18,322 bases of DNA, taken from a virus. A program made the position numbers and the translations under genes. Below the pieces are notes generated by a model, which was not told the DNA's origin, made no database searches, and was given only the letters and a program-made list of their open reading frames with translations. Of this stretch, positions 6,011 to 10,389 are shown piece after piece. The stretch is taken from the UHGV virus genome UHGV-0162284, one strand, 5' to 3'. Every line of letters starts with the position of its first letter. Position 1 is the stretch's first letter.

Positions 6011-6905
6011 CCTTTCGCAGTTGCCTGCGCCGCAGATTGTGGATGTGCCGGACTTTGAGACGCTGCTTGCCGAACGCAAGGCAGAATTTGTGGCGCTTCA
6101 TCCGAAAGATGAGCAGGAAGCAGTGATCCGCACTCTGGAACTGGAATCTGAACCCGTCACCAAATTGCTGCAGGAGAACGCTTACCGTGAGTTGCTTCTG
6201 CGCCAGCGCATTAACGAAGCCGCGCAGGCTGTGATGGTGGCTTACGCGATGGGCAGCGATCTTGACCAGCTCGCTGCCAACTACAACGTGAAACGCCTGA
6301 CGGTGACGCCTGCTGATAATGACGCTGTGCCGCCCGTTGCAGCTGTGATGGAAAGCGATGAAGCGTTACGCCTGCGTGTGCCTGCAGCCTTTGAAGGGCT
6401 TTCAGTTGCGGGGCCAACTGCAGCTTATGAATTTCATGCCCGAAGCGCCGACGGTCGGGTGGCGGATGCCAGTGCAACCAGCCCGGCACCTGCAGAGGTG
6501 GTGCTGACTGTCCTTAGCCGCGAAGGCGATGGAACTGCAGAAAAAGACCTGCTGGACGTGGTGGAAAAAGCTCTGAACAGTGAGAACGTCCGCCCGGTGG
6601 CTGACCGTCTTACGGTTCGCAGCGCAGAAATCATCCCGTATCGCGTGGAAGCCACCATTTTTCTCTATCCTGGACCGGAAGCAGAGCCGGTAATGGCAGC
6701 GGCAAAAGCCAGCCTGCAGAAGTACATCGCCAGTCAGACGCGTCTTGGTCGGGATATTCGCCGTAGCGCCATCTTTGCCGCCCTGCATGTTGAGGGTGTG
6801 CAGCGTGTGGAGCTGGCTTCTCCGCTGGCGGATGTGGTCCTGAACAAAACACAGGCGGCATCATGTACGCAGTGGAGCGTAACCAACGGAGGAACGGATG
6901 AATAG
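5997..6905 (+). CDS. J: Baseplate assembly protein (P2 gpJ family)
   Basis: Track ORF 5958..6905; preferred ATG 5997 (MAVIDLSQLPAP) behind CAGGAG; long collinear similarity to P2 gpJ (FEGLSVAG, HARSADGRVAD, RLGRDIRRSAIFAALHVEGVQRVELASPLAD). Confidence 0.92.
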   Translation: MAVIDLSQLPAPQIVDVPDFETLLAERKAEFVALHPKDEQEAVIRTLELESEPVTKLLQENAYRELLLRQRINEAAQAVMVAYAMGSDLDQLAANYNVKRLTVTPADNDAVPPVAAVMESDEALRLRVPAAFEGLSVAGPTAAYEFHARSADGRVADASATSPAPAEVVLTVLSREGDGTAEKDLLDVVEKALNSENVRPVADRLTVRSAEIIPYRVEATIFLYPGPEAEPVMAAAKASLQKYIASQTRLGRDIRRSAIFAALHVEGVQRVELASPLADVVLNKTQAASCTQWSVTNGGTDE

Positions 6906-7503
6906 TCTGCTGCCACCGGGTTCAACACCACTGGAGCGCCGACTGGCGCAAACCTGCAGCGGGATTTCTGATCTGCAGGTGCCGCTGCGTGACTTGTGGA
7001 ATCCGGCAACCTGTCCGGTCAGTTTCCTGCCTTATCTCGCCTGGGCGTTCTCTGTAGATCGCTGGGACGAGGGCTGGACAGAAAGCGTCAAACGCCAGGT
7101 GGTGAAGGATGCTTTTTATATTCATCAACATAAAGGGACCACCAGTGCCGTGCGGCGGGTGGTGGAGCCGTTCGGCTTTCTGATCCGCATTATTGAGTGG
7201 TGGCAGACCGGAGAGGCACCGGGCACGTTTCGCCTGGATATCGGCGTGCAGGACCAGGGCATCACTGAAGATACCTATCTGGAACTTGAGCGGCTGATAA
7301 GCGATGCCAAACCATGTAGCCGTCACATGATCGGCATGTCCATCAATCTGCAGACCAGCGGCCCGCATTGGGTGGGAGCCGCCAGCTATCTTGGCGAAGA
7401 AATCACGATCTATCCGTATATCAACGAAACGATTATTTCCGGTGGCACCGCGCATGAAGGCGGGGCGGTCCATGTTATTGACACAATGAGAGTGAATCCA
7501 TGA
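6898..7503 (+). CDS. I: Baseplate/tail protein (P2 gpI family)
   Basis: 201 aa; ELWNP..TCP...LPYLAWAFSVDRWDE and GTFRLDIGV motifs match P2 gpI; overlaps the J stop and the H start. Confidence 0.9.
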   Translation: MNSLLPPGSTPLERRLAQTCSGISDLQVPLRDLWNPATCPVSFLPYLAWAFSVDRWDEGWTESVKRQVVKDAFYIHQHKGTTSAVRRVVEPFGFLIRIIEWWQTGEAPGTFRLDIGVQDQGITEDTYLELERLISDAKPCSRHMIGMSINLQTSGPHWVGAASYLGEEITIYPYINETIISGGTAHEGGAVHVIDTMRVNP

Positions 7504-9182
7504 GCACAAAATTTTATACCCTGCTGACGGATATTGGCGCGGCGAAACTTGCCAGCGCCGCCGCGCTCGGTGTGCCGCTAAAAATTACCCATATGGCGGT
7601 GGGCGATGGCGGCGGAGTATTGCCAACGCCGGACGCAAAGCAGACGGCACTGGTAAATGAGAAACGCCGGGCTGCGCTGAATATGCTTTATATCGACCCG
7701 CAGAACAGCAGCCAGATTATTGCTGAACAGGTGATCCCTGAAAACGAGGGCGGTTGGTGGATACGTGAAGTGGGCCTGTTTGATGAGTCCGGGGCATTGA
7801 TTGCCGTGGGCAACTGCCCGGAAAGCTATAAGCCGCAACTGGCTGAAGGCAGCGGGCGCACCCAGACCGTGCGCATGGTGCTGATTACCAGCAGTACGGA
7901 CAATATCACCCTGAAAATCGACCCTGCCGTTGTGCTGGCAACCCGCAAGTATGTCGATGACAAGGCACTGGAGCTGAAGGTGTACGTGGATGACCAGATG
8001 GCAAAACATCTTGCCGCACTGGACCCGCATTCGCAGTATGCACCCAAAGAAAGTCCGACGTTTACCGGAACCCCCAAAGCGCCAACGCCAGCGGCGGGGA
8101 ATAATACCACGCAGCTTGCGACCACCGCATTTGTTCAGGCGGCACTGACGGCTCTTATTAATGGTGCGCCAGCCACGCTTGACACGCTAAAAGAAATAGC
8201 CGTAGCCATTAACAATGATCCGAAATTCAGTACCACCATTAACAATGCGCTGGCACTGAAAGCGCCGCTGTCGAGTCCGGCACTCACCGGAACGCCAACA
8301 GCCCCCACGGCGGCGCAGTCGGTCAACAATACACAGATTGCCACTACGGCTTTTGTGAAATCGGCGATTGCGGCAATGGTGGGTTCTGCACCTGCGGCAC
8401 TGGATACACTGAACGAACTAGCGGCGGCGCTGGGGAATGACCCGAACTTTGCCACGACAATGCTTAATGCACTGGCAGGTAAACAACCGCTGGACAATAC
8501 GCTGACTAATTTGAGTGGAAAGGATGTTGCTGGTCTTCTCGCATACCTTGGTTTGGGAGAAGGTTCATTTGGGTTCAGAAATCTGGTTGCCTTCACAACG
8601 GCTGGAGTAACAAACTGGACTGTTCCTGAAGAGTTGCGCAAAGGAAGAAAATGTTACGTCAAAGTTATTGGTGGCGGTGCGTCAGGAGGGATAGGTTCAA
8701 CAACCGCTTCAGCCGTTACATGTGGCGGAGGAGGTGGTGGGGGCGGAGTTGCTGAGGGGCTGGTAGATTTAACTGGTATAAACAGTGTTTCGATTACGGT
8801 TGGTGCCGGTGGTGCGCCTGTGTCTGGTATTTCTGTAAACGGTAAAAATGGTGGCTCGAGCAGTTTCGGGACTTACATGTCAGCTTCCGGAGGCTATAGC
8901 GGAGGCCAGCCTTCCGGAGGGTTAGGCGCAGTTGGTGTCGGGGGAACAATTAATACATCGCTTGGGCCAGGTTCTCCAGGTTCCATTGCTTCTGCCGCAT
9001 CGGGAGCTGGTAATGGTGGTTCTGGTGGTGGCCCCGGAGGAGCAGGTTCATTCAGAGATACAGCTAACGGAAAAGCGGTATCAGCAGTTGGGCCTGGAGG
9101 TGGCGGTGCTGGATTATGTCCTAATTCATCAACGGGTCAGTCGGGTGCCGGAGCAGATGGCGCAGTTTATATTTACTGGTGA
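7500..9182 (+). CDS. H: Tail fibre protein (P2 gpH family): conserved N-terminal shaft fused, in the present orientation, to a glycine-rich C-terminal tip
   Basis: 560 aa; N-terminus (MSTKFYTLLTDIGAAKLASAA...MAVGDGGG...ESYKPQLAEGSGR) and NDPNFATTMLNALAGKQP match P2 gpH; similarity ends at LGLGEGS, where the crossover site lies; the ~190-aa C-terminus is Gly/Ser-rich with a GGGGGGGG run. Confidence 0.9.
   Translation: MSTKFYTLLTDIGAAKLASAAALGVPLKITHMAVGDGGGVLPTPDAKQTALVNEKRRAALNMLYIDPQNSSQIIAEQVIPENEGGWWIREVGLFDESGALIAVGNCPESYKPQLAEGSGRTQTVRMVLITSSTDNITLKIDPAVVLATRKYVDDKALELKVYVDDQMAKHLAALDPHSQYAPKESPTFTGTPKAPTPAAGNNTTQLATTAFVQAALTALINGAPATLDTLKEIAVAINNDPKFSTTINNALALKAPLSSPALTGTPTAPTAAQSVNNTQIATTAFVKSAIAAMVGSAPAALDTLNELAAALGNDPNFATTMLNALAGKQPLDNTLTNLSGKDVAGLLAYLGLGEGSFGFRNLVAFTTAGVTNWTVPEELRKGRKCYVKVIGGGASGGIGSTTASAVTCGGGGGGGGVAEGLVDLTGINSVSITVGAGGAPVSGISVNGKNGGSSSFGTYMSASGGYSGGQPSGGLGAVGVGGTINTSLGPGSPGSIASAASGAGNGGSGGGPGGAGSFRDTANGKAVSAVGPGGGGAGLCPNSSTGQSGAGADGAVYIYW
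8536..8561 (+). repeat. Left recombination site of the invertible segment (gix/hix-like 26-bp imperfect palindrome)
   Basis: TTCTCGCATACC-TT-GGTTTGGGAGAA inside H (codes ...AYLGLGE); matches the reverse complement of 10336..10361 at 19 of 26 positions, with the same central TT. Confidence 0.65.
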
Positions 9183-9189
9183 GGTTCAT

Positions 9190-9360
9190 ATGTGGGCAAG
9201 AATTGAAGAAAATAAAGTAGAAGAGATAACGGAAATTAATCCTGAAGGAAGATTCCATCCATCATTAATATGGAAAGAATGCCCTGCTGACACACAGCAG
9301 GGGGATTTATATATTGATGGTGAGTTTATTGTGCAGTCTCCGGCAGTTCAGGCCAGATAA
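9190..9360 (+). CDS. Small hypothetical protein (57 aa) coupled to H; candidate minimal chaperone/accessory for the Gly-rich tip, or a remnant
   Basis: ATG 9190 lies 8 nt after the H stop behind GGTGAGG; clearly AT-richer than the flanks by eye; the track's 142-aa ORF 8932..9360 is an in-frame extension overlapping H and is not favoured. No family recognised by eye. Confidence 0.3.
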   Translation: MWARIEENKVEEITEINPEGRFHPSLIWKECPADTQQGDLYIDGEFIVQSPAVQAR

Positions 9361-9934
9361 CATCCGGCGCGGTGCTGGTATCTGTTGCCGTCACCGCGTC
9401 AATGTAATCCAGCACAGCGTTAAGTCTGGTTGTTTCTGCCTGCGTCAGTTTACGTCCGGCCTGCAATTTCAGTTGAATCAGACTGATGGAAGCCATTGCT
9501 GCATCAATCAGTGACTGGCGCTGTGCTTCTGCCGCTTCTACTGCGGCACCGTGTTGTGCCTCAGTATCTGTCACCCATTTTTCACCATCCCATTTATCGT
9601 GTGGCGTTAACGGGGCGATAGTGGTTGTATTTTCGGGATAGTCGCCTAGTGCTGTGATTTCTTTGGCATCTCCCGTTTCGGTGTTATAGACGATTTCACC
9701 GCGATGGTCTGACACATATTCCCATGATTTTAAATCCACAGAACGGCAAATTGTATAACCAGCCTTAGATGTAACAGGAGCGTCTAAACAGGAATATGCT
9801 GGAATACCGACACCCACTGCAAGATATTCAGTTGATGCAGAAATATATTCCCGCGTCTCACCATCATAGTTATAGACGGTAATATTCCCCGCCTTCGTGG
9901 CAATAAACTCGCTATTTAATACGGCGTTATCCAT
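9326..9934 (-). CDS. Tail fibre assembly chaperone (Tfa / Mu U / P2 gpG-like), paired with the alternative fibre tip
   Basis: 202 aa on the minus strand; C-terminal region (LIQLKLQAGRKLTQAE...RLNAVLDYIDAV...APDVIWPELP) is typical of Caudovirales tail-fibre assembly proteins; its start overlaps the stop of the upstream minus-strand cassette (TAATG). Confidence 0.78.
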   Translation of the reverse strand: MDNAVLNSEFIATKAGNITVYNYDGETREYISASTEYLAVGVGIPAYSCLDAPVTSKAGYTICRSVDLKSWEYVSDHRGEIVYNTETGDAKEITALGDYPENTTTIAPLTPHDKWDGEKWVTDTEAQHGAAVEAAEAQRQSLIDAAMASISLIQLKLQAGRKLTQAETTRLNAVLDYIDAVTATDTSTAPDVIWPELPETAQ

Positions 9935-10389
9935 TATGCAGCCCTCACGATAAAGTTAAATGCAATATTTCGTGGACGGGTTTCACTCCCGCCATATGAT
10001 GATGTAAATCCCGAATATGCCCGGTGTCCCGCATCCGTCGTATTAGCCCAGGAAGGACCGCTAGAAGTATAGATGACCCCATTGTAATCATGGCCGTGTG
10101 CCTCAATGCTCCCGTCCTGCGCAGACAGGAGAGTCCGTCCTGAATCAATTCCTCTTCCATCATCCCACCCACGAATGAATTCGCCGCGTAAATCTGGCAA
10201 TTTATTTGTCGGATAAACTTTTGCCAGTTCCGGATACTCTTCGGCAGAAAAAGCTGCACCGTTGCATTTCAGCCAGCCTGTTGGCGGTGTGACTGAAGGC
10301 CACGGAACAGGTACGCCAACAGGCAATGCTGAGCCTTCTCCTAAACCAACGTTTAAGAAAATGCAGATGTAACGGCTAACTGGCATCAT
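9934..10389 (-). CDS. Alternative tail-fibre C-terminal cassette (Sv'-like, tail-collar-type receptor-binding region); promoterless until inversion fuses it to H
   Basis: Minus-strand ORF carries GLGEGS at residues 15-20, the same junction peptide as H at the left site; downstream PVPWP...GWLKCNGAAFS..YPELAKVYP...LPDLRGEFIRGWDDGRG matches the phage tail-collar pattern. The first 14 codons of the track ORF are probably not translated in vivo. Confidence 0.72.
   Translation of the reverse strand: MMPVSRYICIFLNVGLGEGSALPVGVPVPWPSVTPPTGWLKCNGAAFSAEEYPELAKVYPTNKLPDLRGEFIRGWDDGRGIDSGRTLLSAQDGSIEAHGHDYNGVIYTSSGPSWANTTDAGHRAYSGFTSSYGGSETRPRNIAFNFIVRAA
10336..10361 (-). repeat. Right recombination site of the invertible segment (gix/hix-like)
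   Basis: Plus strand TTCTCCTAAACCAACGTTTAAGAAAA; its reverse complement TTTTCTTAAACG-TT-GGTTTAGGAGAA aligns with the left site; lies ~50 bp upstream of the invertase start. Confidence 0.65.

Follow-up and report, generated by a model that had tools for sequence, protein, structure and literature searches.

How did two similar stretches come to lie side by side in a tail-fibre gene, directly upstream of a DNA-inversion site, and what might they do there? The gene, H, lies in the window, the whole 18,322-nucleotide stretch of viral DNA that was analysed (UHGV-0162284), which represents the late region of a P2-like Escherichia coli prophage. An initial annotation had described a tandem duplication of 74 amino acids (aa) in the fibre shaft and had proposed that such repeats set fibre length and can mediate recombination between fibre genes. 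H shows the traits of a P2-type (Peduoviridae) tail fibre: a PF12571 N terminus, a place after the baseplate genes J and I (the open reading frame [ORF] before it, 6898-7503, encodes PF09684 Tail_P2_I, a P2 I-type baseplate protein), and synteny with P2. A whole-protein scan found no Pfam family in the stretch between the PF12571 and PF21722 domains. The constant part of H, repeats included, is present in 1355 of 5426 complete E. coli genomes. The gene is laid out as follows:

7500-9182, plus strand: tail-fibre gene H, 560 aa, in the currently expressed orientation (ORF and translation; PHROG tail-fibre families, E down to 1e-165)
7500-7949, plus strand: N-terminal baseplate-attachment domain of the P2 type, H residues 1-150 (Pfam PF12571 Phage_tail_fib, E = 8.5e-65)
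8052-8273, plus strand: module 1, H residues 185-258, orthologous to 'repeated element b1' of P1 S
8274-8495, plus strand: module 2, H residues 259-332, orthologous both to 'repeated element b2' of P1 S and to the one module present in P2 H
8496-8535, plus strand: linker of 40 nt from module 2 to the crossover site, NTLTNLSGKDVAG
8562-9182, plus strand: variable C-terminal tip now in frame, glycine-rich (Pfam PF21722 Gly_rich_2, H residues 366-560, E = 4.7e-10)

At the protein level, the tandem repeat is clear. The two peptides singled out in the initial annotation lie at H residues 185-257 and 259-331 (73 residues each), and counting the linking Ser258 the period is 74 aa, or 222 nt. The modules do fall in the span that had been given for them, 8053-8496, although it is off by one base; in codon register they occupy 8052-8273 and 8274-8495. 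They are collinear and align without a gap, with 44 of 73 residues identical (60%, or 59% over 74 columns), which bears out the reported similarity while making its figure of about 55% slightly low. The BLOSUM62 local score of module 1 against module 2 was 225, compared with 35.7 +/- 6.7 and a maximum of 70 in 2000 composition-preserving shuffles (z = 28). When the H protein was plotted against itself, an offset of 74 gave by far the strongest diagonal (103 versus 59 for the runner-up, which lies in the glycine-rich tip), and internal similarity, whose absence would have spoken against a repeat, was evident. Because the score exceeds the shuffles by z = 28 and offset 74 is dominant, we regard the repeat as real and not as an effect of composition.

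The repeat between the modules is visible only at this level. Their DNA is about 62% identical; third codon positions are equal in 26 of 73 cases (36%) and are saturated, the same codon is used at just 17 of the 44 conserved residues, and the longest exact run common to both modules is 8 nt. Tandem Repeats Finder reported no repeat at 8052-8495, and a DNA repeat search at the modules returned nothing beyond one 16-nt pair with a spacing of 222. The low DNA identity and the saturated third positions argue that the duplication is old.

Where does an old pair of this kind come from? A search of phage genomes with module 1 returned gene S of P1, P7, and SJ46 at 78-80% identity, and module 2 matched the P1-like phages JL22 and SJ46 at 83%. 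We took the prior description of this repeat from the annotation of P1 in GenBank AF234172 (after locus PP1RP, M81956), where a 'repeated element b1' of 223 nt and a 'repeated element b2' of 222 nt are marked in Sc, the constant portion of gene S, upstream of the Cin crossover site cixR. At the aa level, window module 1 shares 78% of its residues with P1 b1, and window module 2 shares 84% with P1 b2 and 81% with the lone module of P2 H, whereas identity is 59% between the two window modules and 68% between P1 b1 and b2. Nucleotide identities follow the same pattern (module 1-b1, 71%; module 2-b2, 70%; module 1-module 2, 61%). The pair in H thus has the characters of the b1/b2-type module of P1 S, namely a tandem period of 222 nt (74 aa), copies that are each nearer to the P1 counterpart than to the neighbouring copy, and a position within the constant part of the gene, immediately before an invertase site. 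Since each window copy is closer to its P1 counterpart than to its neighbour, the duplication is older than the split between the P1 S and H lineages. The repeat is no local duplication of the H gene, but an old pair orthologous to P1 S b1/b2. It is the b1/b2 repeat already known from P1-type fibre genes, here in the fibre of a very common P2-like prophage.

Comparison with the two reference genes shows how much of the surroundings is shared. In P1 S as in window H, the constant part of the fibre gene contains two 222-nt modules in tandem, and downstream of them comes a Cin-type crossover site whose ACCTTGGTTT core is the same in both. P1 S differs in its N-terminal region and in the 'a0/a1' repeats that precede the pair, whereas window H has the P2-type PF12571; moreover, about 150 nt separate b2 from cixR in P1, compared with the 40-nt linker in the window. 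P2 H (NP_046775) shares with window H the N-terminal domain family, the gene order I-H-assembly gene, the b2-type module mentioned above, and a YLGL motif kept downstream. Unlike window H, it has one module only (about residues 256-329), placed after two copies of an unrelated repeat (…LSSATNSTSETLAATPKAVK…), and it has neither an invertase nor an invertible segment. Despite the lack of an invertase, residues 380-390 of P2 H (L081) read …IEYLGLQE… at the place of the crossover site; the counterpart is …LAYLGLGE… in the window and …IQYLGLRE… in P1. This stretch of P2 H looks like either a relic or a conserved junction motif. H in the window is a mosaic that joins an attachment domain of the P2 type to a b1-b2 shaft segment of the P1 type, a crossover site, and a tip that can be switched.

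The switch itself occupies the region downstream of the repeats:

8536-8561, plus strand: left 26-bp crossover site, TTCTCGCATACC TT GGTTTGGGAGAA, inside the codons for LLAYLGLGE; aligns with P1 cixR
8536-8567 and 10330-10361: inverted repeat that contains both crossover sites
9326-9934, minus strand: tail-fibre assembly protein for the alternative tip (Pfam PF02413 Caudo_TAP, E = 3.5e-32)
9934-10389, minus strand: alternative C-terminal tip with a collar domain (Pfam PF07484 Collar, E = 1.1e-14)
10336-10361, minus strand: right 26-bp crossover site, reverse complement TTTTCTTAAACG TT GGTTTAGGAGAA
10411-10983, plus strand: serine DNA invertase, 190 aa (PF00239 Resolvase, E = 1.7e-52; PF02796 HTH_7, E = 4.9e-15)

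The end of the second copy had been placed about 40 bp before the crossover site, and the coordinates agree: the last base of module 2 is 8495 and the first of the 26-bp site is 8536. Several traits of a Din-family switch (Cin/Gin/Pin/Hin) are found here, i.e., an invertase with a resolvase domain and a C-terminal HTH, two inverted 26-bp sites that have the same central dinucleotide and of which one lies inside the fibre ORF, and an alternative tip and assembly gene on the opposite strand, with both orientations occurring. With Cin/cix of P1 the window has in common a serine invertase of 190 aa, inverted 26-bp sites within the fibre ORF, and two sets of tip and assembly gene that lie in opposite directions. 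The same likeness extends to Gin/gix of Mu and Pin of e14. What sets the window apart from these switches is that one of its tips is glycine-rich and is followed by a 56-aa ORF without a family match, not by a Caudo_TAP chaperone. This ORF (MWARIEENKVEEITEINPEGRFHPSLIWKECPADTQQGDLYIDGEFIVQSPAVQAR; 9190-9360, plus strand) lies directly 3' of the glycine-rich tip, where a tail-fibre assembly gene is expected; it had no match in Pfam or PHROG, and it may be a partner or chaperone of that tip. The tip (H residues 366-560; 8595-9179, plus strand) has runs such as CGGGGGGGGV and is not collar-type or gp53-like.

Several observations locate the point of exchange. The annotated crossover of P1 cixR falls in its central TT, which is aligned with the central TT of the window site, and inversion would join the collar-domain tip to the constant part of H. 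The translation of this alternative tip ('...GLGEGSALPVGVPVPWP...') matches the C termini of the relatives P0002, L001, and L040, and among IMG/VR relatives the assembly gene is found pointing either way with respect to H. Homology to relatives extends no further than 8561, a position within the crossover site, and on this ground we ruled out the repeats as a boundary of cassette exchange. In relatives the same constant part is joined to many different tips, and the proteins are 444-581 aa long. Of 24 truncated metagenomic contigs, 13 break off at residues 351-358, i.e., at the crossover site. In these IMG/VR contigs (L003, L009, L023, L044-L046, L048, L052, L053, L062, L065, L072, and L080) the end lies ~1053-1074 nt after the H start; contig ends at the 26-bp site are the pattern expected if both orientations of the segment are present in the sequenced population.

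Comparison of repeat number among relatives showed that two copies dominate and that one- and three-copy genes are rare. Of 120 homologous protein clusters, 108 have two copies, 12 have three, and none has one; among 80 IMG/VR loci whose N-terminal domains are 97-99% identical, the corresponding counts are 78, 1, and 1. A census of complete E. coli genomes by megablast coverage, which did not discriminate three-copy genes, found that 40/40 top matches span the 444 nt in two overlapping pieces, corresponding to two copies. The one-copy form also occurs in two complete chromosomes. In strain JML285, the one-copy H is an intact coding sequence (CDS) of 391 aa in a prophage that is otherwise syntenic, which argues that the fibre tolerates gain or loss of a whole module. 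The three-copy proteins are of two kinds. In five (P0001-P0005) all three copies stand in tandem within the constant part, and in seven (P0006-P0012) a diverged third copy follows the crossover site and belongs to the variable part. In the latter, which are 543 aa long, the extra b-type module occupies residues 361-434 and is 54% identical to either window copy. Because this third module lies inside the variable part, the two states of the switch would differ in module number.

Are the rare variants assembled from the two existing copies? The middle copy of P0001 is a chimera that matches module 2 as far as ALDTL and module 1 from there on; that of P0002 and L001 likewise passes from module 2 (the N-terminal part) to module 1, with the switch at ATTAFV; and that of P0003 is a near-exact second module 1. 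The single copy of L068 is a chimera in the opposite order, module 1 up to NDPNF and then module 2. DNA tracks show a single clean switch in each of the two loci, around module nt 75-78 in L001 and at nt 160-174 in L068, and the chimera junctions fall in short conserved patches. Such chimeric modules, with several independent junctions, are the expected products of in-register unequal exchange at microhomologies of 5-13 nt, although the variants could in principle come from exchange between different prophages instead. The proposal that the repeats can mediate recombination therefore stands in a narrow sense, in that rare one- and three-copy relatives carry in-register chimeras of copies 1 and 2. 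A broader sense is opposed by exact identity of no more than 8 nt, by the retention of two copies in 108/120 clusters and 78/80 loci, and by a mosaic boundary that lies at the crossover site. That gain and loss of modules are rare fits with copies that lack long DNA identity.

Beyond these relatives, the module is widespread. A module profile built from both window copies and searched against 1.84 billion representative proteins matched 40,578 proteins at E <= 1e-3, 13,467 at E <= 1e-10, and 1,644 at E <= 1e-30. Among the best 150 matches, a single protein holds up to 11 near-full-length modules, and the commonest spacing of successive modules is exactly 74 residues (45 cases). Many proteins repeat just the first ~30 module positions (SPxxTGxPxAPT…NxTQIATTAFV), so the module is composite. 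Matching phage proteins are annotated as tail fibre, side tail fibre, or minor tail protein, and they include lambda Stf, S of P1/P7/SJ46, and proteins of Burkholderia phage BcepMu and of many mycobacteriophages and Gordonia phages. Lambda Stf (orf-401/orf-314) and the minor tail or collar fibre proteins of mycobacteriophages contain the module or its C-terminal half (…APxALDTLxELAxALGNDPNFATT…) at 52-72% identity; unlike window H, they have another architecture, usually with one copy or a sub-motif, and no invertase context.

Pfam and NCBIfam scans of whole H and of the shaft alone returned no module family, only chance matches below the cut-off, and the precomputed Pfam labels on relatives at the module position (PF14749, Acyl-CoA_ox_N) were likewise set aside as below-threshold chance matches. 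Our proposed family assignment draws on our own profile and on the P1 annotation, with no Pfam or NCBIfam model behind it. On the breadth of the profile matches, the module is among the commonest building blocks of tail fibres.

Could the number of modules set fibre length, as had been proposed? Modular copy-number variation that is exact in phase makes it plausible that repeat number contributes to fibre length. From the position of the modules in the protein, the fibre annotations, and the tolerated gain or loss of whole modules, we infer that they form part of a trimeric rod that would space the tip from the baseplate. AlphaFold2 (AF2) monomer models of residues 150-370 (single-sequence) and of residues 175-345 (19-row alignment) reached a pLDDT of only 40-41. 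At this level (about 40) the models are unreliable, and they agree solely in giving each module a non-helical first third and, after it, three short helices. By sequence, PDB 9d93 ("tail collar fibers, gp4") matches module positions 23-71, and PDB 9k09 ("tail fiber protein") matches positions 1-30 twice; a literature search found no paper for 9d93. A weak match to 6v8i (80alpha FibU) was dropped as a structural guide, as density ends at residue 123, before the matching region.

We consider it highly probable that H carries an ancient b1/b2 pair of shaft modules that is inherited or transferred as a unit and is subject to rare exchange at microhomologies. On this explanation, residues 185-332 would be two copies of a 74-residue tail-fibre shaft module, the same pair as b1/b2 of P1 S, and the duplication would have taken place before the P1 S and P2-type H lineages split. 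Since then the pair and the invertase crossover site downstream of it would have been inherited, or moved horizontally, as one unit. The modules, with the baseplate-attachment domain on their N-terminal side and the switchable receptor-binding tip on the other, would contribute to the trimeric rod suggested above. Their shared phase and conserved motifs would permit rare in-register unequal exchange at very short microhomologies, from which viable one- and three-copy genes may arise, and the two-copy state would be stable because the DNA of the copies has diverged too far for homologous recombination to be frequent.

Three other accounts of the repeat deserve consideration. We give practically no credence to the idea that the similarity reflects a low-complexity composition rich in Ala, Thr, and Pro, without true homology; BLAST did mask the first 14 residues, but shuffles that preserve composition scored at most 70 against the observed 225, the 44 identical columns are aligned without a gap, and specific motifs are conserved in thousands of proteins. 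A recent duplication within this prophage lineage, acting as a current hotspot of homologous recombination, would account for copies that are exactly tandem and in phase and for the existence of copy-number variants. It is nevertheless very improbable, given a DNA identity of 62% (36% at third positions), a longest exact run of 8 nt, an identity matrix that places each copy nearer to a module of P1 or P2 than to the adjacent copy, and the retention of two copies in about 98% of the sampled relatives.

The remaining account dispenses with duplication in place and supposes that recombination between different one-module fibre genes joined the two modules. The module is indeed widespread and shuffled among unrelated phages, P2 H has only a b2-type copy, located after a different repeat, and in-register exchanges between modules do occur. 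Against these points, P1 S has the same b1-b2 order beside its crossover site, which suggests that the pair arose once, before both lineages, and exact 74-aa tandem arrays are the commonest arrangement, as duplication in place would give. We therefore judge such a joining to be unlikely, and we favour the ancient, jointly inherited b1/b2 pair.

What does the pair mean for fibres of this kind? The repeat is genuine, but it is an ordinary feature of a known kind, and the biology is as expected, repeated shaft modules and mosaic tail-fibre genes being a long-established theme. Mildly new are the chimeric one- and three-copy variants and the finding that so common a module has no curated family; with more than 40,000 representative proteins containing it and no Pfam or NCBIfam model, there is value here for annotation. 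The module boundaries (SPxxTG … KxPL), together with the tolerated one-, two-, and three-copy forms, offer natural in-phase splice points, useful for annotation and for the engineering of chimeric P2, P1, or tailocin fibres. More speculatively, and with the balance of probability clearly against it, gain and loss of b-type modules in register, via microhomology-mediated unequal exchange, might be a regular means of tuning fibre length in P2-like prophages; length could then match the depth of the host O-antigen or capsule, and copy number could vary along with the type of receptor-binding tip. Genes of the P0006 type hint at such tuning, as a third module in the invertible part would give each state of the switch a different shaft length.
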